From Bacteroidaceae bacterium (GTDB lineage Bacteria > Cyanobacteriota > Vampirovibrionia > Gastranaerophilales > Gastranaerophilaceae): a stretch of DNA of 64,000 nucleotides. Below, in pieces: positions 11,752 to 64,000 of the stretch. The stretch spans positions 9,757 through 73,756 of the forward strand of contig CAVHEM010000009.1 of assembly GCA_963635055.1 (NCBI GenBank), given 5' to 3'. The notes under the pieces are model-generated. The model did no database searches, was not told the DNA's origin, and saw only the letters and a program-made list of their open reading frames with translations. How positions within the stretch are numbered: the first letter of the stretch is position 1; each line of letters starts with the position of its first letter. Both the position numbers and the translations under genes were made by a program.

Positions 11752-11798
11752 AATTTTTATATTCGTGTTAAAATTCAATAGTAATAATGGAGTTCATA

Positions 11799-12215
11799 AT
11801 GAGTAATAGCCAATTGGATTTGATGAATTTGAAAAACTGTATAAGCGCTTTGAAAGAATGCATTGAAGCCTATAAGTCAAATACAGATAAGAAAATACAA
11901 GGTTTTATAGAAGATTCTTGCGTTAAAAGGTTTGAATTTACTGTTGAAACATCTTGGAAAACAATGAAACGATTTTTAAAAGTCGTTTATGGTAAAGATG
12001 ATAAAGAATTGACCATGAATAATATTTTTCGTTTAATGGAAGGATATGGATTTATCAAATCTTGGGAAGCATGGCGTGGTTATTATGACCAACGAAATGA
12101 TACAAGCCATGAATATAATCAAAAGAAGGCTATTGGTATTTTGAATTCTATGAATGATTTATTAGAAGATGCAAATTACTTATACACAGAATTGAATAAG
12201 GAATTAAACAAGTAA
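11799..12215 (+). CDS. HEPN-domain protein, HI0074 / HepT-like nucleotidyltransferase substrate-binding family (toxin-type component)
   Basis: VKRFEFTVETSWKTMKRFL and RNDTSHEY (Rx4H HEPN motif). Start set at ATG 11799, which has a GGAG SD. Confidence 0.8.
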   Translation: MSNSQLDLMNLKNCISALKECIEAYKSNTDKKIQGFIEDSCVKRFEFTVETSWKTMKRFLKVVYGKDDKELTMNNIFRLMEGYGFIKSWEAWRGYYDQRNDTSHEYNQKKAIGILNSMNDLLEDANYLYTELNKELNK

Positions 12216-12512
12216 ATGCCACTTGGAATAACAGAAAAAGAGCGTAGTATAATTGTAGGTATTTTGAAAGAATATTTCAACAAATATTCTTTTTATTACT
12301 ATGGTTCAAGAATAAAAGGAAATTTTAACAAGACTTCTGATTTGGACATTATGATAAAGGGCAACTCAGAGATGCCTTTGTCTGAATTAGCAGCATTAAA
12401 AAACAAATTTGATAAAAGTTTTTTGCCGTATATTGTGAATTTTACAGATTATTGTAGTATTGATAAAAATTTCTATAATTTAATTAAAAATGATTTAATT
12501 CTTGTCAAATAA
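12216..12512 (+). CDS. Minimal nucleotidyltransferase (MNT / MntA-like, HI0073 family; antitoxin-type component)
   Basis: YYYGSRIKGNFNKTSDLDIMI (GS...DxD NTase motif). The ATG directly follows the HEPN gene stop (TAAATG). Confidence 0.8.
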   Translation: MPLGITEKERSIIVGILKEYFNKYSFYYYGSRIKGNFNKTSDLDIMIKGNSEMPLSELAALKNKFDKSFLPYIVNFTDYCSIDKNFYNLIKNDLILVK

Positions 12513-27423: not shown

Positions 27424-28695
27424 ATGAGCGTAAATTCAACAGTATCATCAGTAAGCAGTTCATCTGCAACATCTCAAGTTTCAAAGTCTTCAAATACTGA
27501 AAGTTCAAAAAAGACTTCTGATTCTTCTTTCAAAAATGAAATGGATAAAGTTTCAACAACAGAAAAAACTGAAAAAGATACAAAAACAGAATCTAAAGAG
27601 GTAAAAGAAACCAAAGAAACCTCAAAAACTCAAAAATCAGAAGAAACAGCAAAAGCTGAAAATACAAAAGACGCAAAAGTTGATGATAAAAATACTGTTT
27701 CTGACAAAAAAGAAACCAATATTGTTGATAATAAAGAAAACTTGTTAAAAGATATTGAAAAAAATAACATTGAACTTATTAAAAATCAACAAATTTTAGA
27801 TAAGAAAAACTTGTTAGGTACAGATAATAACCTTCAACAAGAACAACAGGCTCAGCAGATTCAATTTGCTCAAGCAAACTTAAACAAAAATATTGATAAT
27901 CCGATTTCTAAAAAAAATGATGTAAAAACTGTTGTAAAATCAGATAAAAAACGTGAAAATGAGTTGGATTCAATTAGTACTGAACTTGATAATGATTTAC
28001 AAGTTCCGACAGATACTTCACAACTTCAAGCAACGGATAGCAATTACAATACTGATTCGTTAGTTGCTGATGAAAATAATATGTTGAATGGTAATGTCAT
28101 ATTCAATAATGAATTATCTAGTTTTGATATTAACAATAATGAATTATCAAATGATATTCAACAAATGATAAATACCTCAACAATTGCTCACAATGTCGCA
28201 AGTGTTAAGGCTACTCAAGCAGTTGGAACTATGAAGTTAAATAACTCAACTAACAGTATTTCAATGACACAATCTGATGCTGAATTCTTTGTTAATTTGA
28301 CTCAAAATAATGATGTTTCAATGCAAAATATTACGGCTCAGGCAACAGAAATGACCCAACAAGGTGCTGATGTTAAAGAAGTTCAACAAAATGTCAAGGT
28401 ATCACAAGCGTTACTTGATGCCTTGAGTGAATCTCGTGAAAAAAATCAACCTGTAAGAATTGATTTTGATAAAGATGTTTCTGTTGTTTTAAGAGTCGGT
28501 AAAGATGGCGCCTTGGCTGCAAACTTTATCCCTGGCGATAAAGCAGTTGAGCAATATTTGAGAAATAATATTGAAACTTTGAAAAATACATTTAATGAAA
28601 ACGATTTGCCGTATTCAGATTTGAGTTATTCAAACAGAGGCGGCAAACAACAACGTGAAAACCAACGTAATAGACAACAACAGCAGCAGCAATAA
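27424..28695 (+). CDS. fliK: Flagellar hook-length control protein FliK-like
   Basis: S/T/K/E/N/Q-rich disordered N-terminal part and a conserved-looking C-terminal domain (VRIDFDKDVSVVLRVGKDGALAANFIP...). Its position between fliJ and a hook/rod protein supports the call. Confidence 0.55.
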   Translation: MSVNSTVSSVSSSSATSQVSKSSNTESSKKTSDSSFKNEMDKVSTTEKTEKDTKTESKEVKETKETSKTQKSEETAKAENTKDAKVDDKNTVSDKKETNIVDNKENLLKDIEKNNIELIKNQQILDKKNLLGTDNNLQQEQQAQQIQFAQANLNKNIDNPISKKNDVKTVVKSDKKRENELDSISTELDNDLQVPTDTSQLQATDSNYNTDSLVADENNMLNGNVIFNNELSSFDINNNELSNDIQQMINTSTIAHNVASVKATQAVGTMKLNNSTNSISMTQSDAEFFVNLTQNNDVSMQNITAQATEMTQQGADVKEVQQNVKVSQALLDALSESREKNQPVRIDFDKDVSVVLRVGKDGALAANFIPGDKAVEQYLRNNIETLKNTFNENDLPYSDLSYSNRGGKQQRENQRNRQQQQQQ

Positions 28696-44840: not shown

Positions 44841-46250
44841 TTATTTTTCAAGTTCAATCATTTCGTCATCGTCTTGAATATTTTTACCAATAGATTTTTC
44901 AAGTTCGGCACGAGCAGAATTGTATTCATATAATGCCGTATAATAGGTTAATTGCGCTTGTTCGTAAGTATTTTCAGCATCTTTCAATTCTGTTGGAGAT
45001 GCCTCACCAACACGGTAACGACCATAAGATAACTCGTAGTTTTCTCGAGATTGTTTAACGTTTAAAATTGCTACAGGAAGTTGATTTCGCTTTTCTTCAA
45101 GTTTCAAATACGCATTTTGAATTTCCAAATATATACTGTTTTGGGTATTTCGAGCATTTGCAAGTTCTCTATCGTACAAATATTTTGCTTCTTTAATTTC
45201 ATTTCTGATAAGCATTGCGTTAATTGTCGGAAAAGTCAAATATCCGCCAACATTAAAACCGTAATTGGAATTCCAAGACTTACCACCTCGTTGATATTGA
45301 CCTTCAAAACTCAAGGTTGGAAAGAACGATTTTTTTGTCAATTTGATAGTTTGATTAACTCCTTCCACTTTAATTTCTGCAAGTTTCAATTCCGGACGAG
45401 AATCACGAGCCGTATCAATTGCCTGCTCAAATGACATATTAACCGGTTTATACTGTAATTTATCTACAATGTCATATCTTTCAATATAAGGTACACCCAT
45501 TACATTATTCAACTTTGCAATAGCCAAATTAACCGCATTTTCAGCCTGAATAAGTTTTAATTTTGCATTACTCAAATTTGTTTCTGCGATTGTGACATCA
45601 ACTTTCGGATTTTCTCCAGTCAAATAAAACGCTTTGGCCTGATTGTAAAACAATTGGTACTTATCAACGGTATCTTGTGCTACACGACGATTTTCATAAG
45701 CATACAAAACATTATAGTAAGCATCTTTAGTTTGGTAAATTACATCATTTACAACTGCTTCAAAAGTTTTTTTGTAACCCTCATAATCTAATTTTCTGAT
45801 TGTTGCCTGATTTTGAGTTACCCCAAAGTCATAGAGCATTTCTTGCAGTGAAATCTGCCCAAGCAAATAGTAATTAAATTCCAAACTTTGCCCTAATGCA
45901 TCAGACAATTGCAATTGTCTTAAACGAGTATAACCGGTTTGCCACGATATTGTTGGGAAAAAGTTTGACCAAACTTGTTTAATTCTGGCATCTGATGCCA
46001 AAATATCTTGAAATGCAGCGTTAATTTGCGGATTATTACCAAGTGCAAGTTTCAAACAGTTATCAAGAGTCATATCAATATTTTTTTCAATAGAGCCAGA
46101 TATGACATAGTTTGGATTAACTTTTACCTCAGGCAAAACTTGTTCACCTTGCGGATATTCGTCCGTATTGATATCATTGCCCAAACTTTTAGCCAAGGTT
46201 ACGGGCGAAATCATTATTATTATAAAAATTATGAATAATTTTTTAAGCAT
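44841..46250 (-). CDS. TolC-family outer membrane efflux protein
   Basis: Signal peptide and two tandem OEP repeats with characteristic helical heptads. Overlaps the RND pump gene stop. Confidence 0.85.
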   Translation of the reverse strand: MLKKLFIIFIIIMISPVTLAKSLGNDINTDEYPQGEQVLPEVKVNPNYVISGSIEKNIDMTLDNCLKLALGNNPQINAAFQDILASDARIKQVWSNFFPTISWQTGYTRLRQLQLSDALGQSLEFNYYLLGQISLQEMLYDFGVTQNQATIRKLDYEGYKKTFEAVVNDVIYQTKDAYYNVLYAYENRRVAQDTVDKYQLFYNQAKAFYLTGENPKVDVTIAETNLSNAKLKLIQAENAVNLAIAKLNNVMGVPYIERYDIVDKLQYKPVNMSFEQAIDTARDSRPELKLAEIKVEGVNQTIKLTKKSFFPTLSFEGQYQRGGKSWNSNYGFNVGGYLTFPTINAMLIRNEIKEAKYLYDRELANARNTQNSIYLEIQNAYLKLEEKRNQLPVAILNVKQSRENYELSYGRYRVGEASPTELKDAENTYEQAQLTYYTALYEYNSARAELEKSIGKNIQDDDEMIELEK

Positions 46251-49200
46251 CTTTTTTACTTTCTTTGATTTTTGAAACTTTATTTGACATGTAAATTTTA
46301 AATTCCTCTACCATAACGTAAAATGCCGGAACTAGGAATGTACCAATAAATGCAACCGCCATCATACCGCCAAATACTGTCATACCAACAGAGTGACGAG
46401 ATGCAGCCCCTGCACCTTGCGCAAATACAAGAGGTAACAAACCTAAAATAAACGCAATATTTGTCATCATTACCGCTCTGAAACGTAATTTTGCAGCCTG
46501 CATTGCCGCTTCTCGTATCGGCATACCGCTTTCATGAGCATCTTTAGCAAATTCAACAATAAGAATTGCCTGTTTTGTACTCAAACCGATTAACATAACC
46601 AAACCAATTTGAGAATACAAGTCCATTGAATACCCTGCAACATATTGGAAAACCAGCGCTCCGACAAGAGATACAGGAGTAACCAAAAGTACACTTATTG
46701 GCAAGAACCAACTTTCATACAATCCGACCAAGAACAAGAAAATAAATACCAAAGACATTACCAAAATCGGTAAAATTTGTCCGCTTGATTGTTTTTCTTG
46801 TAAAGAAGAACCTGACCATGAGTAGCCCATATTATCCGGCAAAACTTCATCAGAAAGTTTTTCCATCATCTCCATTGCCTTACCGGAACTTACACCAGAA
46901 CGTGCACTTCCGTTAATTGTAATTGCTGGGTACATGTTAAATCTTGTTCTTGTATATGGTCCGACAATGTTAGAAATTTTTACAACAGACATCAACGGTA
47001 CCATTTTACCAAAGTTATTTTTTACATAAATTTTATTCAAGTCAGAGATTTTTTCTCTATATGGTGCATCTGCTTGAACATAAACACGGTAAACACGACC
47101 GTATTTGTTAAAGTCATTAACATAAGTTTTGGCAAAATATGCCGCAATTGCATTATAAATTTCAGTAACTTCAACATTCTGCGCCATTGCTTTATCCACA
47201 TCAACATCAATCAACAATTGAGGCAAATTTGCTGTGTAAGATGAATAAATCATAGTAAAATCAGGATTTTGTCTTGCTTTATTCATCAAATTTTGTGCTT
47301 GTTGATACATTTCACCGGCACTTCTATCACCTTTATCAAGTAATTGATATTCAAAACCGCCAAACATACCTAAACCTGTAATAGCAGGTGGGGAGAAGGT
47401 CGCTATCGTAGCCCCAGGGAAATGCGCAAATTGAGCGTTAATGTTTCCGGTTATACCATCTATAGATTCTTCTTTTGACTTTCTTTGTGACCACGGCTTT
47501 AAGTGAGATACGATAAATGCCGTATTTTCACCGTCAAAACCAATCAATGAAATAGTATCAGCAACCCCAGGGAGTTTTTTCAATTTATTTTCAACGTCCT
47601 TTGCAACACTATCTGTTCTTGACGCTGATGAACCTTCCGGCAACTGAATTTGAGTAAACAATGCACCTCTGTCTTCTGCCGGCAAAAATCCTTTTGGAAT
47701 TAAATAGAACATAAAACCTGATAATACTGTAATTCCAAGAATTACTCCAAGTGTCAATTTCCACGAGTTAATAAAGGTTTTTGTTCCTTCAATATATTTA
47801 TCACGAACCCCGTTAAACCATTCATCAAAAACTTGAATAAACTTAAAGTCCGCTTTTTGACTATCTTTTTTCAATATCATAGAACAAAGTGCAGGTGCTA
47901 AAGTCAATGCAACCATTGTTGACAAACCGATTGATGAGGCAATACATAGTGCGAATTGTCTGAACATACGACCTGTAATCCCGCCCATAAACGATACTGG
48001 AACAAATACTGCCATCAATACTAACGATGTTGCAACAACGGCACCAAATACCTCTTTCATTGTGACTTCTGTCGCTTCTTTCGGGTCAAGTCCGTCTTGA
48101 ATGTGTCTTTGAGTATTTTCCAATACAACAATCGCATCATCTACAACCAGCCCAACAGCAAGTACCAAGCCGAATAAAATCAACAAGTTTATCGAAAATC
48201 CAAATAAGTTCATGAAAATAAATACACCGATTAAAGAAACCGGAATTGCAGCAAAAGGAATAAATGCCGCTCTTGCAGTACCTAAAAACATGTAAGTTAC
48301 AATTGATACCAATAATACGGCTAGTGCAACTGCCGTTACAACTTCGTGAATAGATTCTCGTACAAATTCCGTTTCATCGTGTTGAACTTTGTATGTAATA
48401 TCTTTTGGGAAAGTTTTGCTCAATTCAGCCAATTTCTTTTGAATTTTATTTGACAATTGAATAGCATTTGCTTCGGGCATTTGACTGACTGTAACAATTG
48501 CAGAATTTTTACCGCTTATACGTGAAAAATAGGAGTAACTTTCTGCCCCTAAATCAACTTTTGCAACATCTTTCAGCTTAATTTGCGCACCGTTTGGCAA
48601 TGATTTTATAATTATATCTTCAAACTCTTCGGCTGATTTCAAACGTCCTTTGGTACGCATAGTGAGTTTGATTAACTGTTTGTTTTTCATAGGTTCAACA
48701 CCCAAATCACCGGCAGGTGTTTGAATATTTTGAGCCTGAATTGCATTAGTTACATCAGTTGTGGAAAGCCCATAATTTGCCATTTTGTCAGCATCAAGCC
48801 ATATACGCATTGCATAAGATGATGAACCGAATACACTAACTGTACCGACGCCTTTAATACGTGCGATTTCATCTTTAATAAAGATATCTGCATAATTTGC
48901 AATAAATAAGTTATCATAGGAATTATGCGGAGAATTTACAGAAATCATCAACAACCCCGGACCACCGGTAGTTTTACGTACGGACAAACCGTATCGCCGC
49001 ACTTCTTCCGGCAAACGAGGGGTTACAAGTTGTAACTGGTTCTGAACGTTTACTACTGCCATATCCGGATCCGTTCCGATATCAAAATATAAAGTCAATT
49101 TATATGAACCGTTTTGAGAGGTTGACGACATATATATCATATTATCAACACCGTTCAATTGAGCCTCAACCGGTGCCGCAATAGTAGATTCAATAACGTC

Positions 49201-49377
49201 AGAACTTGCACCTGCGTAAGTTGCCTGAACAACAACCTGCGGTGGTGTAATTGAAGGATATTCCTCAAGAGGCAGCGTTTTTATCATCAAAATTCCGGCA
49301 AGTAAAATTGCCAGCGATATTACTATCGCCAATTTTGGACGTTTTATAAACAAATTACCTTTATTTTCTGTTGACAT
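46243..49377 (-). CDS. RND multidrug efflux transporter (AcrB/HAE1 family)
   Basis: 1044 aa with 12 TM segments and two large periplasmic loops. Has the VVDDAIVVLEN motif. Confidence 0.95.
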   Translation of the reverse strand: MSTENKGNLFIKRPKLAIVISLAILLAGILMIKTLPLEEYPSITPPQVVVQATYAGASSDVIESTIAAPVEAQLNGVDNMIYMSSTSQNGSYKLTLYFDIGTDPDMAVVNVQNQLQLVTPRLPEEVRRYGLSVRKTTGGPGLLMISVNSPHNSYDNLFIANYADIFIKDEIARIKGVGTVSVFGSSSYAMRIWLDADKMANYGLSTTDVTNAIQAQNIQTPAGDLGVEPMKNKQLIKLTMRTKGRLKSAEEFEDIIIKSLPNGAQIKLKDVAKVDLGAESYSYFSRISGKNSAIVTVSQMPEANAIQLSNKIQKKLAELSKTFPKDITYKVQHDETEFVRESIHEVVTAVALAVLLVSIVTYMFLGTARAAFIPFAAIPVSLIGVFIFMNLFGFSINLLILFGLVLAVGLVVDDAIVVLENTQRHIQDGLDPKEATEVTMKEVFGAVVATSLVLMAVFVPVSFMGGITGRMFRQFALCIASSIGLSTMVALTLAPALCSMILKKDSQKADFKFIQVFDEWFNGVRDKYIEGTKTFINSWKLTLGVILGITVLSGFMFYLIPKGFLPAEDRGALFTQIQLPEGSSASRTDSVAKDVENKLKKLPGVADTISLIGFDGENTAFIVSHLKPWSQRKSKEESIDGITGNINAQFAHFPGATIATFSPPAITGLGMFGGFEYQLLDKGDRSAGEMYQQAQNLMNKARQNPDFTMIYSSYTANLPQLLIDVDVDKAMAQNVEVTEIYNAIAAYFAKTYVNDFNKYGRVYRVYVQADAPYREKISDLNKIYVKNNFGKMVPLMSVVKISNIVGPYTRTRFNMYPAITINGSARSGVSSGKAMEMMEKLSDEVLPDNMGYSWSGSSLQEKQSSGQILPILVMSLVFIFLFLVGLYESWFLPISVLLVTPVSLVGALVFQYVAGYSMDLYSQIGLVMLIGLSTKQAILIVEFAKDAHESGMPIREAAMQAAKLRFRAVMMTNIAFILGLLPLVFAQGAGAASRHSVGMTVFGGMMAVAFIGTFLVPAFYVMVEEFKIYMSNKVSKIKESKKDA

Positions 49378-49399
49378 TATTGTTACCCTAATTTATATA

Positions 49400-50575
49400 T
49401 TATTTTTTCTTTGATTTTTTCTTATTTGAATTTTGGACAATTGATTTGTTTAGTTTTGCCATTTCTTCTTTTGAAACGATTTTAACAGGTGTTCCCGGAA
49501 TAACTTTCAGAATTCCTTCTGTAATAATAGTATCGCCTGCTTTTAATCCGTCTTTTACAATCCAGTTTTTACCTGATTGACCTTGAACTTTTATATAAGT
49601 TAATTGCGGTAATCCTTTATCATCGATTTTATAAACATATTTACCTTCTTGGTTTTCTTGAACAGCCACAACAGGCACTACAGGAACTTTAACAGGATTG
49701 TTTGCATAAAGTTTTACATTTACAAATTCGCCGTGTAAAAGTCTGTTTTTAGGATTTTGGAAAGTTGCACGCATTGTAACAGTACCGGTTGAATCATCAA
49801 CTTTGTTGTCCAAAAAGTCTTGAACACCGTCTAATTCATATTTTTCCCCATTTTGAAAATACAATTCAACCTTACGTTTTTGACTTGCATCAGTATCTGA
49901 TTTTGTGAGTGCTATATAATCGTTTGATTGCATCGGAAAAGTTACATATATCGGATTCGTACTATTAATAGTCGTCAATGAACCAGATGTAGGAGAAACA
50001 TAGTTTCCTACGGTCACATCAATGATACCAATTCGTCCATCAACCGGTGCTTTTACGGTTGTATAACCTAAATTTCTGTTTGAATCGCTGTATGTTGATT
50101 GTGCAGCTTTCAATTGCGCCTTCAAAGCGTTTCTGTTTGCCAATATTTCATCATAACGAGATTTTGCAATATAATCTTTTGCTACAAGTTCTTGGGCCCT
50201 TGCTAGTTGTTTATCAGCATAATCAAGTTGTGCTTGAATATTTTGAACATTTGCACCGGCAACACTTGATGCATTTTGATACTCTGCAGGTTCTATCAAA
50301 AACAAAGTTTGACCGGCTTTTACATAGTCACCTTCTTTAAAGTAACTTTTTTGCAAATAACCGGAAATTCTGGCAAGTACACTTACTTGATATTTTGAAA
50401 CGATACGAGCAGGCGCTTCAAAACTCGGGACAACTTCACCTTCTGTGATTTTATCGACTACAACTTCCGGAGCCTGCCTTACTCGTCCTTTGCTTGAAAA
50501 CATTGCGGAATAGCCAAATCTTAAACCAATTGCCGCAAATATAATCAATGTTATTATTATAATTTTCGACTTCAT
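49400..50575 (-). CDS. RND efflux periplasmic adaptor (membrane fusion protein, AcrA-like)
   Basis: N-terminal anchor, coiled-coil hairpin and beta-barrel segments. Start set at ATG 50575, which has a GGGAG SD. Confidence 0.85.
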   Translation of the reverse strand: MKSKIIIITLIIFAAIGLRFGYSAMFSSKGRVRQAPEVVVDKITEGEVVPSFEAPARIVSKYQVSVLARISGYLQKSYFKEGDYVKAGQTLFLIEPAEYQNASSVAGANVQNIQAQLDYADKQLARAQELVAKDYIAKSRYDEILANRNALKAQLKAAQSTYSDSNRNLGYTTVKAPVDGRIGIIDVTVGNYVSPTSGSLTTINSTNPIYVTFPMQSNDYIALTKSDTDASQKRKVELYFQNGEKYELDGVQDFLDNKVDDSTGTVTMRATFQNPKNRLLHGEFVNVKLYANNPVKVPVVPVVAVQENQEGKYVYKIDDKGLPQLTYIKVQGQSGKNWIVKDGLKAGDTIITEGILKVIPGTPVKIVSKEEMAKLNKSIVQNSNKKKSKKK

Positions 50576-50660
50576 TATATATCTCCCTATCAAAATTTTA
50601 GAGGTAAATCCTAATCAACGTGTATATTAAGTTTAATATAAATGTACTTTTGGTGTCAAA

Positions 50661-53666: not shown

Positions 53667-53701
53667 AAAAAAAACACCGACATAAATTTGTCGGTGTTTT
53701 T
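53667..53701. terminator. Bidirectional hairpin terminator between giant gene 2 and ilvD
   Basis: ACACCGAC / GTCGGTGT stem flanked by an A-run and a T-run. Confidence 0.7.
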
Positions 53702-53726: not shown

Positions 53727-56700
53727 CTAAAATACGTTTGAGAATTTATTCACATCATCTAATATCATATTCAAGAATAGAATTTGATTTGCAGTTGCAG
53801 AATCTAGGTTTACGAACTTAGCCCCTGCTCTGCTGCCGGTAGTTGAAACGATTTCAACATCAGCATTGATATCAAGGTTTCCGTAGCCGATGTGAACAGG
53901 CACTACATCACCAACTTTGATGTCTTTGCCGTGCTTGATTGAAATTCCACCTCTTGAAATATCTATCAACTGTTCAACACCGTGTCCTGTTTCAAGTGAA
54001 ATAGGGTTAATGTTATCAGAAACCGAATATCTCATATATTGACGTTTGTCAATTGCTGACAAGCCTTGAGAATCAATTTTTCTTTGAATATAAGTAACAC
54101 TACCATCTGCTCTACTGTTGTCATCGTCTGTATCGATATCATTGTCTGCATCTGTATCAACATCAGTATCAGTGTCTATATCTGTATCCCCTGGGTTAGG
54201 TTCCGGTTTATCGTCATCTGTGTCAGTATCCCCAGGATTTGGTTCTGGAATATCATCGTCATCATCTGAATCGGTATCTCCAGGGTTAGGTTCCGGCTTA
54301 TCATCGTCTGTGTCGGTATCACCCGGATTTGGCTCAGGAATATCATCGTCATCATCTGAATCGGTATCTCCAGGGTTCGGTTCCGGCTTATCATCGTCTG
54401 TGTCAGTATCACCAGGATTTGGCTCAGGAATATCATCGTCATCGTCTGAATCGGTATCCCCTGGGGTCGGTTCCGGCTTATCATCGTCTGTGTCAGTGTC
54501 ACCAGGGTTTGGTTCTGGGATATCATCATCAGTATCTGTATCAATATCAGAGTCCAAGTCGATATCTGTATCAGCATCTAAGTCATTATCCAAATCTGAG
54601 TCTGCATCAGTGTCTGTGTCCATATCGATATCATTGTCAGCGTCAATATCTGTGTCTGTATCAATATCCGTATCGGTATCAGTATCACCAAATGATGGTT
54701 CTTTGTCATCTGGTTTATCGTCATCAGTGTCGGTATCTGTATCCCCTGGGTTTGGATCAGGAATATCATCGTCTGTATCAATATCTGTGTCAGTATCAGA
54801 ATCCAAGTCAATATCCGTGTCAGAATCTAAGTCAGTATCAATATCTGAATCCAAATCAGTATCTGTATCTATATCGGTATCGTTATCTAAGTCGTTGTCA
54901 TTATCAACATCAATATCTGTATCTGTGTCAACGTCTGTATCAGTATCAGTGTCGCCGAAATTAGGTTCATCAGGCTTATGATCAGGAGTATCATCATCTG
55001 TGTCAGTATCTGTATCGATATCAACATCAGTATCTGAGTCTAAATCTGTATCAATGTCGTTATCAGCATCAGTATCAGTATCAATATCATTATCTACGTC
55101 GATATCTGTGTCTGTATCAATATCCGTATCAGTATCGGTGTCACCAAAAGTTGGCTGATTTTTATCCTTGTCCGGAATATCGTCATCTGTATCAGCGTCT
55201 AAATCATTATCAGCATCGATATCAGTATCCAAATCTGTATCAATATCTAAGTCTGTATCGATATCAGTATCTGTATCTATGTCGTTGTCAATATCTATAT
55301 CAATATCTGTGTCGATATCAGTATCAATATCGTTATCTGTATCCCCAAATGAAGGTTCAGGTTTATCTTCCATTTCTAACGGTGTTGCATCTACTATATC
55401 ATCATTATCATCAACATTAGATTCTTGACCATTAAATACACCGTCACCATCTCCTGGGTGATAGTAATAATTTCTTTCATGTTCGTCACGACCGATACCT
55501 TCAACATCATCTGGTCTAACGGCATGACCTGTAGGAATTTCGCTAGTACCAATCATTTTATTTGTTGAAGAATCCGGAGTTTTTGTATATCCGTCTTTAC
55601 CGAATTTTACAGCAATACCATTTGCATAGATATTATCTGCCGTAATATCAACGGTTCCATTATCAATAACCGCATTATCAACTCTTACTGTTGAATCAGC
55701 GTAAGCGTAATGACCATTATCAATATAAGTTCCGTTTGGACGAAGTGCTTTGTTAATATCCAATGATTTTAATACAACATTATTTGGTAACGCCTCATCT
55801 CTATGGTCAAAACCTGTATATCCGCCATCTTTTTGTCCGTAATCACGTGGTCCGAAGTAATCTTTCGGAGTAACTGAATTATCAACAATGTGACCTAAAT
55901 TTTTGATTGTTAAATTTGTACCTCTTGTAATAATTCTCATATTACCTTCTGAAGTAACATTGTTAATTATAGTGTTTCCGCCGAATTCAGCATCTAAATC
56001 GCCTTCACGAGCGATAATAGTACAAACTTTATTTACTAAATTTTTCTTATCATCTAATGCTTTAATAAAAATACTATCGTTAGCAAGTGCATCAATTGAA
56101 TAATTATTGCCATCTGTTTGGTTAAATGTCAATTTATTATCTTTGCTACCAATGTTGCCGTTAGATATCAAAGACATTCCCCAACCTTCAACATTTGCAA
56201 CAGTGTTATCAATTGCTGAATTTAGCATATCATAACGAGAACCGTTATTTGTATAACCAAAATCGTCATCAACAGTCAAAATAACTCTGCCATCTGCCTT
56301 GATTTTATCAATATTCATATCGTTACCGATAGAAGCGTAATTGATAACTAAATCTTTCTTTCTTGAAACCGGACTCTTAATTGTATCAGTTGTTGTTGCT
56401 GTAACAGTACCATCAACATTAGCATTGATTGATTTTGTAAAATCTCTGCTACCGTCAGATTTTGGACCGATACCTGTACAGCCTGAACCAACGCATGCAT
56501 TTTGTTGAACAGGTTCACCAATTGTGCCGTTTTCAACGTCCATTGTTAAATTTCCACCGGCATTCAATAATGTTTTTTCTACACCATAATTCAAAATATT
56601 TCCGTTGGTATTCGTAATATCAATATTTTTACCTGCAGAAACGTAATTATCATTAGAAGTTCTATCACCGATTACAATATTACTGTTTTTGTTTGCTATA

Positions 56701-57887
56701 GCGACATTTCTGTCAGCGTGCACAAGCCCTTTGATATTAAGACCTTTAGAACCGGTATTTGTAATATTTACATTATCAGTAGCATTAACACGTCCTGAAC
56801 TTGCAATATTTAAACCTTCATTACCACTGTTTGAAAGGTTTGTTTCGCCATCATTCAAAACATTACCAGAAATATTAAGTTCAGTTTCTTTAGAAATTGT
56901 GTAATCGTAAACATTTCCATCAACATTGTAACGAGTCCCGTTTTCAGCCGGAGCGTTAGTAATATTTATCTTACCGCCAGCGTTTTTAACAGTTCCTGAA
57001 ATATCTAAATCATTCCAGTAATTGTTTATTGTAGTGTTACCGTTTGAGTTTACAACATTACCGGCAATTTTGATACCTTCTGAACCGTTGTTGTTGATAT
57101 TTATATCACCATTTCCTAGGTTTCTCATTGTACCTTGAATATCAACACCGGCATTAGTATCTGTTTGTCTTGTTTCGATAGTAATATTACCGTTATTGCT
57201 GAAATACTTGACATTATTTGTATTAACTAAAGTGTCAAACAAATTTTGCGCTTGTGCTTTTGATAAATTATTTAATGCTGATTCATTTACACCCGAAATA
57301 ATTCCCGCATTTTTCGCTATAGTAACCTTGCCACCTTTTAACTCAACATCATTTGCCGCTAAAACTTTACCGTTGATGGTAATTGGTTGACCATTATTTG
57401 AATTTGCTAATCCTGAATAATCAGCAGTCGGGTTAGAACGATATTTTTCATAAGTTGATTGAGTCGGTGTATAAACGCTCAAAGAACCTACATTAAGTAC
57501 ACCTGAAGAACCAACAACCATACCTTTAGGAGATACAAAAACTGCTTTTCCATTATAAAAATTGCCATCTCTCATAGTATTAACTAAACCGTTGATATTG
57601 ATTTGGTTATCAACTAAGTTCAAAAAAGTATTAATATCATTATTACCATATTTGAAAATCAAATTAGCAACATCATCTTTATCAAGTACAAAATCTTTAT
57701 ATTTTCTGTAGCCGATATCTGTTTTCGGAATCATTGCTGTAGGGTTAATGTTGTAAACGCCGTTATTTCCGTTAATCCCGCTAATTTCACTTGCAATGAC
57801 AGATAGCAACATGCTTTGTTGTGTTAAAAATAACGATGTAAGCACTGCCGCTACAATTCTTTTAGGTCTTTTATTACGGGTATTCAT
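53727..57887 (-). CDS. Giant (about 1386 aa) paralog of 12805-17130: signal peptide + TPS/hemagglutination-type domain + beta-helix-like region + Asp-X repeat modules + C-terminal PilZ domain
   Basis: Signal peptide MNTRNKRPKRIVAAVLTSLFLTQQSMLLSVIAS. The TPS-like block is YRKYKDFVLDKDDVANLIF...INGLVNT...AVFVSPKGMVVGSSGVLNVGSLSV. Blocks shared with paralog 1 include NILNYGVEKTLLNA, GSGCTG, GSRDFTKSINAN, LVINYASIGNDMNID, ADGRVILTVDDD, PTGHAVRP and DEHERNYYYH. The C-terminus carries RQYMR and DISRGG. Start set at ATG 57887, which has an AAAGGA SD. Confidence 0.8.
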   Translation of the reverse strand: MNTRNKRPKRIVAAVLTSLFLTQQSMLLSVIASEISGINGNNGVYNINPTAMIPKTDIGYRKYKDFVLDKDDVANLIFKYGNNDINTFLNLVDNQININGLVNTMRDGNFYNGKAVFVSPKGMVVGSSGVLNVGSLSVYTPTQSTYEKYRSNPTADYSGLANSNNGQPITINGKVLAANDVELKGGKVTIAKNAGIISGVNESALNNLSKAQAQNLFDTLVNTNNVKYFSNNGNITIETRQTDTNAGVDIQGTMRNLGNGDININNNGSEGIKIAGNVVNSNGNTTINNYWNDLDISGTVKNAGGKINITNAPAENGTRYNVDGNVYDYTISKETELNISGNVLNDGETNLSNSGNEGLNIASSGRVNATDNVNITNTGSKGLNIKGLVHADRNVAIANKNSNIVIGDRTSNDNYVSAGKNIDITNTNGNILNYGVEKTLLNAGGNLTMDVENGTIGEPVQQNACVGSGCTGIGPKSDGSRDFTKSINANVDGTVTATTTDTIKSPVSRKKDLVINYASIGNDMNIDKIKADGRVILTVDDDFGYTNNGSRYDMLNSAIDNTVANVEGWGMSLISNGNIGSKDNKLTFNQTDGNNYSIDALANDSIFIKALDDKKNLVNKVCTIIAREGDLDAEFGGNTIINNVTSEGNMRIITRGTNLTIKNLGHIVDNSVTPKDYFGPRDYGQKDGGYTGFDHRDEALPNNVVLKSLDINKALRPNGTYIDNGHYAYADSTVRVDNAVIDNGTVDITADNIYANGIAVKFGKDGYTKTPDSSTNKMIGTSEIPTGHAVRPDDVEGIGRDEHERNYYYHPGDGDGVFNGQESNVDDNDDIVDATPLEMEDKPEPSFGDTDNDIDTDIDTDIDIDIDNDIDTDTDIDTDLDIDTDLDTDIDADNDLDADTDDDIPDKDKNQPTFGDTDTDTDIDTDTDIDVDNDIDTDTDADNDIDTDLDSDTDVDIDTDTDTDDDTPDHKPDEPNFGDTDTDTDVDTDTDIDVDNDNDLDNDTDIDTDTDLDSDIDTDLDSDTDIDLDSDTDTDIDTDDDIPDPNPGDTDTDTDDDKPDDKEPSFGDTDTDTDIDTDTDIDADNDIDMDTDTDADSDLDNDLDADTDIDLDSDIDTDTDDDIPEPNPGDTDTDDDKPEPTPGDTDSDDDDDIPEPNPGDTDTDDDKPEPNPGDTDSDDDDDIPEPNPGDTDTDDDKPEPNPGDTDSDDDDDIPEPNPGDTDTDDDKPEPNPGDTDIDTDTDVDTDADNDIDTDDDNSRADGSVTYIQRKIDSQGLSAIDKRQYMRYSVSDNINPISLETGHGVEQLIDISRGGISIKHGKDIKVGDVVPVHIGYGNLDINADVEIVSTTGSRAGAKFVNLDSATANQILFLNMILDDVNKFSNVF
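54120..55365 (-). repeat. Asp-X dipeptide-rich coding region of giant gene 2, with several diverged DFGDTD-type modules
   Basis: Translation shows long runs such as DTDTDIDTDTDIDVDNDIDTDTDADNDIDTDLDSDTD, interrupted by short P/E/K linkers and [SNT]FGDTD module starts. Confidence 0.85.
54188..54530 (-). repeat. Tandem 90-nt repeat (about 3.8 copies) encoding DIPEPNPGDTDTDDDKPEP(N/T)PGDTDSDDDD
   Basis: GGTTCCGG(T/C)TTATC(G/A)TC(A/G)TCTGTGTC recurs at about 54199, 54289, 54379 and 54469. Confidence 0.85.
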
Positions 57888-58067
57888 AGAAAATCCTTTC
57901 ATGTCATGAAATAAAAAATACACATCTAATCAACAAATTTATTCTAGCAAGAGCATGTCAAAAAGTAATGTATTATTACTTTTTTTTAAGACATGTTCTT
58001 TTTATTGTTTGTTTAAATACCCGTAAATATTTTTTCTTGCTAGTTTTTAGCGAAATGTTAAGTTTTG

Positions 58068-59525
58068 TTATTCAGCAAAATTTATCCATTTTCTAACTAC
58101 TAAATAATAAAATCCATAGAACAATATTAACAAAATCAACATTTGAACCGTTCCCGGAATTATTGCGACATAAGTTTTTAACAAATATGCCAAAATAATC
58201 AAAGGTACAAAGGTTACAAACAGTCTTAAAATCATTCGTCTAGGAAGTTTGATATTCAAATTTGGTACAACAATTACTACACTTAACAACCAGAACAAGA
58301 AATTTGCTGCCAAAGTTGCTAAACCTACACCAACCAAACCCATCTTCGGAATTAAAACAATATTCAATACAACACCAACAATGCCTGAAATCAATTTAAT
58401 TATAAATCCAATGTGAGTTTTATTTGCCAAATGATACTGTAATGTTGTGTAATCAGTCAAAGACAAGAAAAATACACCCAATGAAAAATACGGAACCAAA
58501 ACACTTGCTTCATACATTTTTGGATTAGAAATAAACAAATGAGTGTAATCTAGATTATAGTAAGAAATTACGGCAATAACAGGCAATGAAACAAGTAAGT
58601 AATAACCTAAAAATCTTGAAATAATCGGTCTTACGTCAATTTTTGCTTCATACATATTGATAATACGTGGAATTGCAGCAACGGTAATCATAGCAAAAAG
58701 AGTCAATAATATTGACATCGTCAAGCCGTAACCTGCACCAACCAATGCCGCTTTTGAAAAGCCACTAATACTGTTCATAATAAATTTATTACTTTGTGTA
58801 ATAATCCAAGCGCTTAACGAAGTTGCAGCAATCGGAACACCGTATTTGACAATAGGTAAAATTGAACTCCATTCGATTTTTTGAGGTTTGAAAACCTTTA
58901 AAATTTCACTCTGATAAAGCAATAAAATATCTATCAATGTTATTGAAATTCCCATACTTAGCAAGATAGAAGCAGCACCAAGATGGAACGTTTTAGCTAA
59001 ATAGATTGCCAATAAAATCGTAGCAAATTGGTTCAAAATCGTTGTGATTGAGTATGAAATAGATTTCAATTGAGCACGTAAAATTTGAGATAACAATGCT
59101 CTTACAGCAACCGGAATTATCAAGAATAATACCATCAAGAAATACTTGAACGGAACATGGAATTGTGCGTAAAGATTATCTTTAAATATAAACCCTAGCC
59201 CAAACATCAATAAAATATTTATCGTCAAAATAGTAACTAAAGTTGTTACATATTTTGGTAAATCATCAAGAAGCTGGTGATGTCTGAAAAATCTTAGCCC
59301 AGATAATCCAACCCAATCAGAAAATAGAATACAAAGAAAAGATAAAAGAGCAATCGAAATTGTATACAAACCGTACTGCTCTTGAGAAAACAATGCCGTA
59401 TAAATAGGTACGGTAATCATATTCCCAAACATTCCACACAATTTTGACGGTGCATATTTCAGCATATCCGTAAAAATACCTTTTACTTCTTTTTCTTCCA
59501 ATTCTATATTTTCAATATATTCCAT
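58068..59525 (-). CDS. Polysaccharide/oligosaccharide flippase family protein (MOP superfamily, Wzx-like)
   Basis: 485 aa with about 12-14 TM segments and a basic inter-helix loop pattern typical of Wzx/MurJ-type flippases. Confidence 0.65.
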   Translation of the reverse strand: MEYIENIELEEKEVKGIFTDMLKYAPSKLCGMFGNMITVPIYTALFSQEQYGLYTISIALLSFLCILFSDWVGLSGLRFFRHHQLLDDLPKYVTTLVTILTINILLMFGLGFIFKDNLYAQFHVPFKYFLMVLFLIIPVAVRALLSQILRAQLKSISYSITTILNQFATILLAIYLAKTFHLGAASILLSMGISITLIDILLLYQSEILKVFKPQKIEWSSILPIVKYGVPIAATSLSAWIITQSNKFIMNSISGFSKAALVGAGYGLTMSILLTLFAMITVAAIPRIINMYEAKIDVRPIISRFLGYYLLVSLPVIAVISYYNLDYTHLFISNPKMYEASVLVPYFSLGVFFLSLTDYTTLQYHLANKTHIGFIIKLISGIVGVVLNIVLIPKMGLVGVGLATLAANFLFWLLSVVIVVPNLNIKLPRRMILRLFVTFVPLIILAYLLKTYVAIIPGTVQMLILLILFYGFYYLVVRKWINFAE

Positions 59526-63298: not shown

Positions 63299-64000
63299 TT
63301 AACTTCCTTTCTTGTATGCTGACTGTTTATACTCCTTTTTTAATTGTTTTAATAAAGATATTAAAAATTTATCGGTAAGTTTGCTCAACGGTACTTCTAG
63401 TTTTGTATTTTCAGCACTATCAAGCCCTGTATGTGTTATTTCAATTTTGAATTTTGCAAAACCATTATATCTGATTGTCAATTCACTATGTAAATTCTCG
63501 TTTTTCAGGCTAAAAACGCACTCTATATCATTAGCATATTGACTCACCTCAGTGTTAGTCAATTTTGCCTCGAACTCGTTTTTATATCTAAAAAATAACG
63601 GAATAATAACATTATTCATTTTATTATAAAACACATTTTTAAATAATTTGAAACTTTTAATATTCGATTGCTCGTTATCATCTTCATCTAACCATGAATT
63701 TTGCACGTCAATATTATGTTCTAAGCATACTGCAATAACATCATTTTGTATTGCAGATGTAAGCCCATCAAGCGCAAGTTTTTCTAATGTTGCAAAAGAC
63801 TGAATGCCAATCAAAGAAACTCCTGCTCGAATTTTGAAACTTTCACCCATTTTATCTTGCAATTTCTGCAAAACTGCTTTTGTACTAATTAAATCAATAT
63901 TTGGCAATATCAAATAGAATTTTCCGCCACGAGCAATTGCTGCAATATCATCTTGACGAAGCGTAGATTTTATTGCAAGTGCAAGTCTGTTTGTTGAAAT
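63299..64000 (-). CDS. C-terminal part of a protein with a probable degenerate GGDEF domain (RGGKFY instead of GG[DE]EF) plus an uncharacterised ~190-aa C-terminal region; N-terminus lies beyond the right edge
   Basis: The reverse-strand frame stays open to the window edge: ISTNRLALAIKSTLRQDDIAAIARGGKFYLILPNIDLISTKAV... This resembles the LR..D.vaRyGGDEFaillP core of diguanylate cyclases. The track ORF start at 63913 is only an internal TTG. Confidence 0.5.
   Translation of the reverse strand: MSTNRLALAIKSTLRQDDIAAIARGGKFYLILPNIDLISTKAVLQKLQDKMGESFKIRAGVSLIGIQSFATLEKLALDGLTSAIQNDVIAVCLEHNIDVQNSWLDEDDNEQSNIKSFKLFKNVFYNKMNNVIIPLFFRYKNEFEAKLTNTEVSQYANDIECVFSLKNENLHSELTIRYNGFAKFKIEITHTGLDSAENTKLEVPLSKLTDKFLISLLKQLKKEYKQSAYKKGS

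Follow-up and report, generated by a model that had tools for sequence, protein, structure and literature searches.

Can a passenger of type Vb secretion do without a TpsB gene beside it, and what would a PilZ domain do at the end of an exported chain? Both questions are raised by two genes, A and B, in the window (the whole stretch of 64,000 nucleotides of Gastranaerophilales DNA analysed here, from a gut Melainabacterium).

Two paralogous genes and their architecture

The initial annotation had described two open reading frames as diverged paralogues with no TpsB partner. Both exist as described, and the parts and surroundings of gene B are as follows.

53727-57887, minus strand: gene B, a 1386-aa orphan TpsA-like filamentous protein with C-terminal PilZ domain (from the list of open reading frames, stop codon included)
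57792-57887, minus strand: signal peptide, aa 1-32, MNTRNKRPKR followed by IVAAVLTSLFLTQQSMLLSVIA, containing LFLxQQ, predicted cut after VIA (read by eye)
57168-57791, minus strand: TPS (secretion) domain, aa 33-240, LktA/FxxPxG type, matching NF012204
57522-57539, minus strand: FVSPKG motif of the TPS domain, aa 117-122
56631-57167, minus strand: variable beta-helix shaft, aa 241-419, 30-36% identical to A, regular beta-strand rungs in the AF2 model
55374-56630, minus strand: conserved C-proximal beta-helix 'body', aa 420-838, 55% identical to A
54102-55373, minus strand: hypervariable acidic spacer, aa 839-1262, 44% Asp, with DTDxD and PEPNPGDTD modules
54180-54542, unstranded: tandem DNA repeat in the spacer, 90-bp unit, 4 copies, 89% identity (Tandem Repeats Finder)
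53730-54101, minus strand: C-terminal PilZ domain, aa 1263-1386, matching PF07238
54030-54044, minus strand: RQYMR of the PilZ domain, aa 1282-1286
53946-53963, minus strand: DISRGG of the PilZ domain, aa 1309-1314
53670-53701, unstranded: terminator-like hairpin lying between the gene B and ilvD stop codons, 13-bp stem flanked by A and T runs
58068-59525, minus strand: Wzx-like PST-family transporter gene (PF01943), upstream of gene B on the same strand

The ATG at 57887 has GAAAGGA 7 nt upstream and is, therefore, the likely start of gene B rather than the GTG at 57923. The boundaries within gene A were mapped from its pairwise alignment with B.

12805-17130, plus strand: gene A, paralogue of gene B, 1441 aa
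12805-12900, plus strand: signal peptide
12901-13557, plus strand: TPS domain
13558-14571, plus strand: shaft
14572-15915, plus strand: body
15916-16752, plus strand: spacer
15937-16722, unstranded: tandem DNA repeat in the spacer, 207-bp unit, 3.8 copies, 94% identity (Tandem Repeats Finder)
16753-17127, plus strand: PilZ domain

The two products are colinear and 56% identical overall (MAFFT), and the claimed common architecture of signal peptide, TPS-like block, beta-helix, Asp-X spacer and PilZ tail is borne out. Since the TPS domains (41% identity, E 2e-42), shafts (30%, E 1e-8), bodies (448 aa at 55%, E 1e-151) and PilZ domains (61%, E 3e-54) each align by region in BLASTP, the paralogy is not an artefact of low complexity; indeed, the identity holds outside the low-complexity parts, in the TPS domain, body and PilZ domain. 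All of the islands named at the outset (NILNYGVEKTLLNA, C.GSGCTG, GSRDFTKSINAN, LVINYASIGNDMNID, ADGRVILTVDDD, YAYADSTVRV, PTGHAVRP and DEHERNYYYH) are found in the alignment. The strong divergence claimed for the acidic modules and the beta-helix interior is likewise seen, in a hypervariable spacer and in a shaft with 163 gap columns. 

The only hydrophobic segment of the gene B product is aa 11-33 (Kyte-Doolittle 1.55, 19-aa window; maximum past aa 40, 1.2), and its LFLxQQ motif is conserved in the family (120 homologues and the giant members described below). The N-terminal blocks of B and A match the NCBIfam model NF012204, 'adhes_FxxPxG / leukotoxin LktA family filamentous adhesin', with 139 and 131 bits, respectively (cut-off 60), and the TPS domain of B is 43% identical to a Selenomonas LktA-like protein with an adjacent TpsB. 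The Pfam TPS model (PF05860) matched neither A nor B, an observation that speaks against a TpsA assignment.

A and B are confidently modelled as a beta-helix with a TpsA-type secretion domain. The AF2 model of aa 1-838 of B has a pLDDT of 84 and a pTM of 0.83, with a pLDDT of about 90 in the TPS domain and above 90 for most of the body. Its top eleven PDB matches are exclusively TpsA proteins (HxuA, EtpA, FHA, HMW1 and HpmA), whose secretion domains are also the Foldseek matches of the modelled TPS region. The body, the most conserved region of the family, contains the Cys pair C465/C470, ends in DEHERNYYYH...DATPLE and is ~31% identical to aa 4588-5080 of one giant member (P0321). The 1386 residues include only 3 Cys, of which two stand 5 residues apart; the tail has none.

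The classical TpsA/TpsB systems (FHA/FhaC, HxuA/HxuB, EtpA/EtpB, HMW1, HpmA) share with A and B the fold, the Sec signal and the N-terminal secretion domain, but have an NPNGI-type motif in place of SP(K/N)GM and no counterpart of the C-terminal PilZ domain. The LktA family with LktB-type TpsB (Fusobacterium leukotoxin, the LktA-like protein of Selenomonas ruminantium pSRC1) has the beta-helical filament and the NF012204 domain; we know of no PilZ tail, conserved body or Asp spacer in it. A leukotoxin function for A and B is unsupported, with no toxin-like region in the beta-helix model.

The spacer appears to be a length-variable linker, as supported by its comparison among relatives. Within the species of gene B it measures 446, 404 or 372 aa, with fewer copies of the repeat in two contigs (L010 and L012), and relatives have a Pro- or acid-rich linker of 40-140 aa at this position. 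Staphylococcal Sdr/Clf Ser-Asp stalks similarly place copy-variable acidic dipeptide-type repeats between a functional domain and an anchor. A relation to MSCRAMMs was rejected: the scores of 47-70 bits (cut-offs 999-2500) are compositional only, there is no LPXTG, and the likeness to Sdr/Clf does not reflect common descent.

The missing transporter and the giant relatives

The window contains no TpsB gene, in agreement with the initial annotation. Pfam scans gave no POTRA, ShlB or Omp85 match in 30 of the 38 other real-looking open reading frames of at least 150 aa, which include every one of at least 300 aa, and the Selenomonas TpsB and two Melainabacterial TpsBs used as queries found no match in the window (tblastn, phmmer). 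Two contigs of the same species, L010 (98% identity) and L112 (identical protein), also lack a local TpsB, and a survey of 78 related mid-size loci found none within 10 kb. The Selenomonas ruminantium pSRC1 gene, in contrast, directly follows its own tpsB.

The family includes giant PilZ-ended members of 4,936-6,412 aa, four to five times the length of A and B. In five Gastranaerophilales gene contexts these stand head-to-head with a divergent POTRA_2/ShlB/Omp85 (TpsB) gene; A and B have no such gene within reach. The giants, for example MDD3236944.1 (6,412 aa, with 'PilZ domain-containing protein' as its sole annotation), have LFLxQQ, an FxxPxG TPS domain, the body and PilZ in the same order as A and B, with 36-41% identity to gene B in the TPS domain, 29-35% in the body and 33-36% in the PilZ tail. 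Because these giant kin adjoin TpsB, A and B are best read as orphan 'mini' TpsAs probably served in trans by a TpsB encoded elsewhere, and of the two routes first suggested, a shared distant transporter is favoured over a different export pathway. Neisseria and Bordetella offer known cases of orphan tpsA genes that depend on a distant TpsB.

The neighbours are those first described: genes for a HEPN-type NTase_sub_bind protein with MNT and for TypA at one locus, and for a Polysacc_synt (Wzx-like) protein and IlvD at the other. The Wzx-like transporter gene is a conserved partner of the PilZ-ended TpsA-like family. It adjoins a family member in 53 of 80 related loci. Giants have it as a neighbour too, and the window's copy is 52-58% identical to that at two giant tpsA/tpsB loci (L080 and L081).

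The PilZ tail and its clade

The PilZ tail, to which the initial annotation gave too little weight, is the odd feature of A and B, yet it is a family-wide trait. PF07238 scores 36.6 bits in B and 36.1 bits in A (cut-off 22.5), and both RxxxR and DxSxxG are intact. The PilZ motifs are present in 118 of 120 homologues, with RxxxR and [DN]xSxxG near-invariant. The tail shares its fold with the PilZ receptors Alg44, BcsA, YcgR and MapZ: its AF2 model matches their PilZ domains, including c-di-GMP-bound structures. The RxxxR segment is the flexible, low-confidence portion of the model. In the match of the family profile to the PilZ domain of Alg44, both motifs fall on its c-di-GMP-contacting motifs, and an additional conserved basic residue (R1353 in B, Lys in A) falls on Alg44 R95. 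These likenesses suggest that the tail keeps ligand binding.

The clade of this tail comprises 180 clusters among 1.84 billion proteins, all of one lineage, and is found nearly exclusively at the very C-terminal end of proteins that have a signal peptide. In the 150 best clusters with the clade's PilZ, the domain lies within 45 aa of the C-terminus in 58 of the 59 large proteins and in 56 of the 59 small ones, a strictly C-terminal position kept from 145 to 6,412 aa. The small proteins, encoded beside adhesin genes, consist of a signal peptide, PilZ and little else; having no obvious cargo to retain, they speak against a role in retention. Together with the C-terminal position and the single N-terminal hydrophobic segment, they point to a tail that acts outside the cytoplasm.

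All described PilZ receptors are, to our knowledge, cytoplasmic, whereas this clade stands behind a Sec signal peptide with no membrane-spanning segment between. A standard PilZ-domain survey mentions neither periplasm, signal peptides nor adhesins, and we found no paper on a C-terminal PilZ clade of signal-peptide proteins.

A possible retention module and competing readings

We propose that A and B are 'mini', Gastranaerophilales-specific type Vb passengers with TpsB supplied in trans and the PilZ tail as a ligand-controlled retention module, a proposal to which, taken whole, we give an even chance. The signal peptide would take the chain out via Sec, and an Omp85-type TpsB, whose gene lies at another site in the genome next to that of a giant family member, would recognise the LktA-type TPS domain. 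Outside the cell, the Cys-poor chain would form a right-handed beta-helix filament, most likely a surface-displayed adhesin. The flexible acidic spacer and compact PilZ domain would remain at the cell side and decide whether the filament stays tethered; given the conserved c-di-GMP-binding motifs, this step would probably be under ligand control.

In Pseudomonas aeruginosa, the C-termini of the TpsA proteins of CdrA/CdrB and ExlA/ExlB are held at the outer membrane and c-di-GMP sets their retention; for CdrA the inner-membrane receptor LapD reads c-di-GMP and controls the periplasmic protease LapG, while the ExlA relay is unknown (PMC8472254). A and B differ in carrying the c-di-GMP-type domain within the secreted chain and in lacking a LapG site: no LapG-type TAAG/AAG site is present in the gene B product, and no LapD- or LapG-like gene was found among the window's open reading frames scanned. 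The proposed tail would resemble the C-terminal plug that CdrA has in the periplasm, or the prodomain of FhaB. Against the proposal stand the missing LapG site and the fact that we know c-di-GMP solely as a cytoplasmic messenger, and of no ligand for a periplasmic PilZ with intact motifs.

Alternatively, though we think it unlikely, c-di-GMP could be sensed in the cytoplasm: the PilZ domain, made last, would fold round the messenger before SecA pulls the tail through. High c-di-GMP would then stall the chain at SecYEG, either blocking export or tethering the filament across the full width of the envelope, its acidic or proline-rich spacer running through the channels; at low c-di-GMP the tail would unfold and the filament be released, so that the messenger acts directly, without a relay of LapD/LapG type. 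Domains stabilised by a ligand, DHFR with methotrexate for instance, do block Sec-type translocation. The near-invariant, canonical motifs on a PilZ fold, the flexible RxxxR segment, as expected of a ligand-ordered loop, and the unstructured spacer (40-460 aa) directly before the tail also fit. Melainabacteria are reported to have c-di-GMP signalling genes, with HD-GYP in MEL.A1 (bioRxiv 2021.11.05.467447), and the retention of ExlA is sensitive to c-di-GMP in the cytoplasm (PMC8472254). However, the small proteins, in which only PilZ follows a classical cleavable signal peptide, imply a role after export, and the shortest spacers (about 40-50 aa) cannot span the envelope. A jammed SecYEG is normally toxic, and we know of no precedent for cytoplasmic sensing by the tail of a secreted protein.

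It is rather improbable that the PilZ fold was re-used for C-terminal sorting or anchoring, as in T9SS C-terminal domains or SLH domains, at a lineage-specific site, possibly a phosphorylated surface glycan supplied via the Wzx-like transporter; mid-size paralogues might then need no TpsB. The strict C-terminal position whatever the protein's length, always with an N-terminal signal peptide, the small single-lineage clade, the orthologous Wzx-like genes beside family members in three gene contexts and the 78 mid-size loci without nearby tpsB would suit such a role. Yet a complete TPS domain, pointless without TpsB, is conserved in the mid-size proteins, giants with the same tail do possess TpsB, no candidate machinery was seen among the conserved neighbours, and pure sorting leaves the exact c-di-GMP motifs unexplained.

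That A and B are released leukotoxin-type toxins rather than adhesins, with the tail a vestigial or cleaved-off prodomain devoid of signalling, is very improbable. Their N-terminal domain falls in the LktA family model, many TpsA proteins are cytolysins and FhaB sheds a C-terminal prodomain; but aa 35-790 model as plain beta-helix throughout, with no pore-forming or toxin-like region, and surface adhesins typically have tandem arrays and hypervariable spacers. Few parts of the family are as well conserved as the tail and its motifs, which argues that the tail is not decaying. A decaying, unexpressed remnant or assembly artefact of a giant tpsA is scarcely credible: A and B do resemble giants minus the long shaft, and repeats could mislead assemblers, but the reading frames are intact, with a ribosome-binding site and a terminator, independent assemblies carry gene B at 94-100% identity (GCA_963604225.1 with an identical protein), and hundreds of mid-size homologues have similar length and conserved ends.

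Under the proposal that we prefer, in which the tail of the exported chain governs retention, a domain for sensing c-di-GMP that is normally intracellular is found, unexpectedly, in a protein that is exported, and might offer a novel means of controlling adhesion.

Two paralogous TpsA-like genes

We found that the products of genes A and B have the same order of segments (signal peptide, TPS domain, shaft, body, Asp-rich spacer and PilZ tail) and align end to end. All the sequence islands that the initial annotation had listed as common to both are present in the pairwise alignment. Gene B is preceded by a Shine-Dalgarno-like GAAAGGA ahead of its ATG at 57887, and the relevant features are as follows.

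12805-17130 (+), gene A, 1441-aa product
15937-16722, spacer repeat of gene A
53670-53701, terminator-like hairpin 3′ of the gene B stop codon
53727-57887 (-), gene B, intact ORF of 1386 codons
54180-54542, spacer repeat of gene B

Comparison of A and B by segment (identity; BLASTP E-value)
Signal peptide: 53%; no E-value given
TPS (secretion) domain: 41%; 2e-42
Variable shaft: 30%, with 163 gap columns; 1e-8
Conserved C-proximal body: 55%; 1e-151
Terminal PilZ domain: 61%; 3e-54

The region-wise identities of 30-61%, with significant E-values, make the relationship independent of the Asp-rich repeats. B is thus a true paralogue of A, with 41% identity in the TPS domain, 55% in the body and 61% in the PilZ domain; the original observation is real and its interpretation sound. 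A protein identical to B is on record in GCA_963604225.1, and a 98%-identical copy is present in the metagenome-assembled genome (MAG) CAKUUC01. Directly upstream of gene A lies a HEPN-type (NTase_sub_bind) and minimal nucleotidyltransferase pair (11787-12512, +), which is a toxin-antitoxin-like module.

The spacer between the body and the tail of B is 424 aa long and 44% Asp, and its DNA consists of tandem repeats, with 4 copies of a 90-bp unit in B and 3.8 copies of a 207-bp unit in A. These repeats are young. At the same position relatives have a proline- or acid-rich linker of only 40-140 residues, and the spacer measures 446, 404 and 372 aa among genomes that are 94-98% identical elsewhere (related loci L010 and L012 were compared). 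Since repeat copy number varies between near-identical genomes, spacer length appears to change quickly. Membership of the MSCRAMM Sdr/Clf proteins was rejected, as the matches (47-70 bits against NCBIfam cut-offs of 999-2500) cover the Asp-rich spacer only and are compositional. Long ORFs on the opposite strand of the Asp repeats (54118-54981, +; 54329-54964, +; 15846-16766, -; 15914-16528, -) would encode strings of the SVSVS or QYQYL type; these are repeat shadows rather than genes, and similar ORFs are seen again in related loci.

Both proteins begin with a Sec-type signal peptide, called by eye and hydropathy, in which a positively charged n-region is accompanied by a hydrophobic stretch of 22 aa and a VIA/VFA motif. 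The N-terminal domain scores above the cut-off of the LktA-type model NCBIfam NF012204 (B 139 bits, A 131 bits; cut-off 60) and carries the FxxPxG motif, as FVSPKG in B and FISPNG in A, whereas the Pfam TPS model PF05860 gave no match in either protein at E <= 0.1. The domain shares 43% identity with the N-terminal part of an 'LktA-like' protein of Selenomonas ruminantium that is encoded directly 3′ of a ShlB/FhaC-type tpsB. Thus, A and B share the N-terminal FxxPxG domain of the LktA family but not its lktB-lktA operon arrangement, having no adjacent tpsB.

Neither the N-terminal 420 aa nor the tail matched anything in the PDB when used as a single-sequence query, and profiles and structure models were therefore used instead. 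An AlphaFold2 model of B residues 1-838, built on 21 family members, is one long beta-helix (pLDDT 84, pTM 0.83) with continuous beta rungs across residues 35-790, indicating that the passenger is, in this model, right-handed beta-helical. Its eleven best PDB matches are all TpsA passengers or secretion domains (HxuA, EtpA, FHA, HMW1 and HpmA), the best being full-length HxuA (E 3e-5). A and B have the signal peptide, N-terminal TPS domain and beta-helix passenger of TpsA proteins, and lack a local TpsB.

A PilZ domain at the C-terminus

The terminal ~125 residues of A and B exceed the Pfam PilZ (PF07238) threshold (36.6 and 36.1 bits against 22.5), and both proteins carry the c-di-GMP-binding motifs RQYMR and DISRGG. 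In the family alignment RxxxR and (D/N)xSxxG are invariant columns, present in 118 of 120 homologues, and the family tail profile aligns motif for motif with the PilZ domain of Alg44. The structure model of the tail (pLDDT 73 overall, 80-91 in the barrel) matched the c-di-GMP-bound PilZ domains of MapZ, Alg44, BcsA and YcgR with a Foldseek probability of 1.00, so that the tail is modelled as a PilZ beta-barrel. The conserved motifs argue for a ligand, which may be c-di-GMP.

In textbooks, PilZ is the receptor that binds c-di-GMP in the cytoplasm. The tail of A and B has the score, motifs and fold of a classical PilZ domain, but its predicted location is not cytoplasmic: it follows a Sec signal peptide with no membrane segment between them, and the small signal-peptide PilZ proteins described below are alike in this. 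A second membrane segment that might return the tail to the cytoplasm was sought by hydropathy scan and rejected, none being found.

When the tail profile was searched against 1.84 billion representative proteins, it matched 180 clusters (at 50% identity). Among the best 150 of these, the tail lies at most 45 residues from the C-terminus in 58 of 59 large and 56 of 59 small proteins, and ~90% of these proteins keep both motifs. The complete small proteins, of 145-350 aa, start with classical cleavable signal peptides, and some are hardly more than a signal peptide plus PilZ. Because the tail is C-terminal, motif-bearing and placed behind signal peptides in large and small proteins, there is a clade of canonical-looking PilZ domains on proteins predicted to be exported. 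In a standard survey, PilZ domains are described as cytoplasmic receptors, with no mention of signal peptides or adhesins, and we found no account of a PilZ-TpsA fusion in the literature on PilZ in connection with two-partner secretion, Melainabacteria, the periplasm, filamentous hemagglutinin or domain architectures. The PilZ tail is not ordinary.

Small genes of this kind also occur beside the adhesin genes of relatives. In genes encoding 145-260 aa (for example at 14495-14977 of related locus L001), the signal peptide runs nearly straight into a PilZ domain that carries RxxxR and (D/N)ISRGG. Such genes stand immediately 3′ of adhesin genes in no fewer than 12 related loci (L001, L003, L035, L038, L040, L048, L049, L051, L055, L059, L070 and L077); tblastn found none in the window.

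Genomic setting, giant relatives and a probable distant TpsB

Homologues of A and B come from MAGs of gut Gastranaerophilales (Melainabacteria/Vampirovibrionia) from humans, ruminants, chickens and rabbits, where the adhesin genes stand singly or in arrays of up to three in a conserved setting of U32 peptidase, RimO, Wzx-like transporter and adhesin(s). Locus B keeps this setting, and locus A is a dispersed copy. Some records with close relatives (loci L011, L040 and L059) are labelled Acutalibacteraceae, Muribaculaceae or Methanomethylophilaceae archaeon, most likely through errors of MAG binning or labelling. Two further features of the window concern the neighbourhood and the cell envelope.

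44841-50593 (-), RND efflux operon (TolC-like, AcrB-like and membrane-fusion genes)
58068-59525 (-), Wzx-like PST-family transporter gene, next to gene B

The Wzx-like gene adjoins family members in 53 of 80 loci and stays next to PilZ-ended TpsA genes in three otherwise different contexts: it accompanies mid-size arrays, or lies 3′ of a giant tpsA or of a tpsB. With 52-58% identity, its copies are orthologous. This suggests a functional link with these genes. Four genes from locus B, a 416-aa neighbour conserved in 33 related loci (63299-64000, -, truncated at the edge of the window; complete at L010 3303-4586) combines a receiver-like N-terminus with a degenerate core of GGDEF type, 'ARGGKFYLILP', scoring 19.5 bits against a Pfam GGDEF cut-off of 23.8; it may be a c-di-GMP-related regulator. 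The TolC-, AcrB- and AMIN-amidase-type genes of the window, together with the RND operon, confirm a two-membrane envelope and thus a diderm host. A 423-aa ORF at 27424-28695 (+) has a weak, sub-threshold FliK hook-length match (20.7 bits against 29.8) and may be a flagellar gene.

The initial annotation had noted that neither gene has a TpsB partner in the window, and this was borne out. Pfam scans, including every other ORF of at least 300 aa, found no POTRA, ShlB or Omp85 protein there, and neither tblastn nor phmmer detected a TpsB with any of three TpsB queries. Nor was a TpsB found up to 10 kb away from any of 78 mid-size related loci, those encoding proteins of A- and B-like length (1.27 Mb in total). 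This search would have detected one, because the Selenomonas query picks up Melainabacterial TpsBs at E 1e-40; against the protein collection, the Selenomonas TpsB matched Selenomonadaceae only, a result that does not bear on Melainabacteria. A protein of 595-663 aa past the adhesin arrays of relatives was considered as a cryptic TpsB and rejected, being low-complexity, coiled-coil-like, Ala/Lys/Ser-rich and without a Pfam hit. Its gene is convergent to the arrays (L001 15172-16959, -; L003 14906-16807; L006 4399-6366; L008 19979-21970) and was not seen beside gene B in the window, where ilvD stands instead.

TpsB-linked members of the family surfaced through the search with the PilZ tail profile. 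Among its matches are giants of 4,752-6,412 aa, which have the LFLxQQ signal-peptide motif, secretion domain, body and tail in the same order as A and B; the record of one is annotated Candidatus Gastranaerophilales. A giant gene stands head-to-head with a gene for a 617-687-aa POTRA_2/ShlB/Omp85 protein in each of five gene contexts; one such TpsB gene is at L081 7784-9832. Since the giants share signal peptide, TPS domain, body and tail with A and B and carry an adjacent TpsB, A and B look like giants minus the long shaft, orphans of a system whose transporter adjoins the giant gene. Positional orthology of orphan and giant loci through an SDR neighbour was rejected, the SDRs being only 24% identical. 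In the giant tpsA/tpsB locus L080, the Wzx-like gene comes next after tpsB, and beyond it lies an OmpH/Skp-type periplasmic chaperone gene (5702-6166, -), whose product would be suited to handling a very long unfolded passenger.

Orphan tpsA genes with a distant TpsB are known in Neisseria and Bordetella. Among the orphan and tpsB-linked loci compared, no assembly accession was common to both kinds. Judging from the giants, A and B are probably served in trans by a TpsB elsewhere in the same genome, and the puzzle of the absent partner is probably an ordinary one.

Proposed export, retention and role of the tail

We propose that A and B would be exported by Sec via the N-terminal signal peptide, that the TPS domain would be recognised by a TpsB encoded in trans, and that the beta-helix would fold on the surface as an adhesin-like filament. 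Retention would be via the C-terminal end, where the flexible spacer would return to the cell side and end in a compact PilZ domain. As a whole, we give this series of steps about an even chance of being correct. Type V passengers, TpsB substrates among them, cross the outer membrane unfolded, and B has a single hydrophobic segment (aa 11-33) and three cysteines in total, consistent with such a passage. Tat export of a folded, ligand-bound protein was rejected, because the twin-arginine is not conserved in the signal peptides of the family and TpsB substrates cross unfolded.

As to where the tail would meet a ligand, the biology of c-di-GMP argues for the cytoplasm, where the last-made PilZ domain could act as a 'lock'; the existence of standalone PilZ proteins with signal peptides speaks for a function after export. 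We consider the cytoplasmic lock unlikely as the explanation. Alternatively, the PilZ fold may have been re-used for sorting or anchoring, perhaps to a glycan made via the linked Wzx-like transporter; a purely sorting role would leave the conserved c-di-GMP motifs unexplained, and we consider this reading rather improbable. A released toxin with a vestigial tail would fit the LktA-type N-terminal domain, but no toxin-like region was found in the B model and the tail motifs are conserved, making this very improbable. That B is a dead remnant is scarcely credible for an intact reading frame.

Retention of a TpsA via its C-terminal end, controlled by c-di-GMP, is established for CdrA (through LapD/LapG) and has been observed for ExlA (PMC8472254). 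In A and B, unlike CdrA and ExlA, the c-di-GMP-type domain is part of the passenger itself. The LapG cleavage site of the CdrA/LapA type (TAAG/AAG) is in neither A nor B, and no LapD or LapG genes were found among the window ORFs scanned. From its sequences, the system is classed as type Vb secretion with a terminal PilZ module.

More broadly, the whole clade of canonical PilZ domains might act on exported proteins, a reading that we regard as doubtful and that could take two forms. In Gastranaerophilales, c-di-GMP or a related ligand may be put to use beyond the cytoplasm; or, alternatively, cytoplasmic c-di-GMP may lock the tail of a Sec/TPS substrate, making the filament an envelope-spanning tether. 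In either form, a second messenger would directly control adhesin retention with no LapD/LapG-type relay, and the same system would also include the linked Wzx-like transporter and the standalone PilZ proteins with signal peptides. As the tail is a soluble domain of 125 residues, the PilZ hypothesis is cheap to test.

To our knowledge, the way in which a c-di-GMP signal reaches secreted adhesins across the inner membrane has been worked out for one relay, LapD/LapG, and not for others such as ExlA. A PilZ domain welded to the end of a secreted filament would be a new, direct solution to this crossing, or the first non-cytoplasmic re-use of PilZ. Gastranaerophilales are uncultured relatives of Cyanobacteria in the guts of humans, ruminants, chickens and rabbits, and we know of nothing on how they attach there; the family described here looks like the main set of their large surface proteins.
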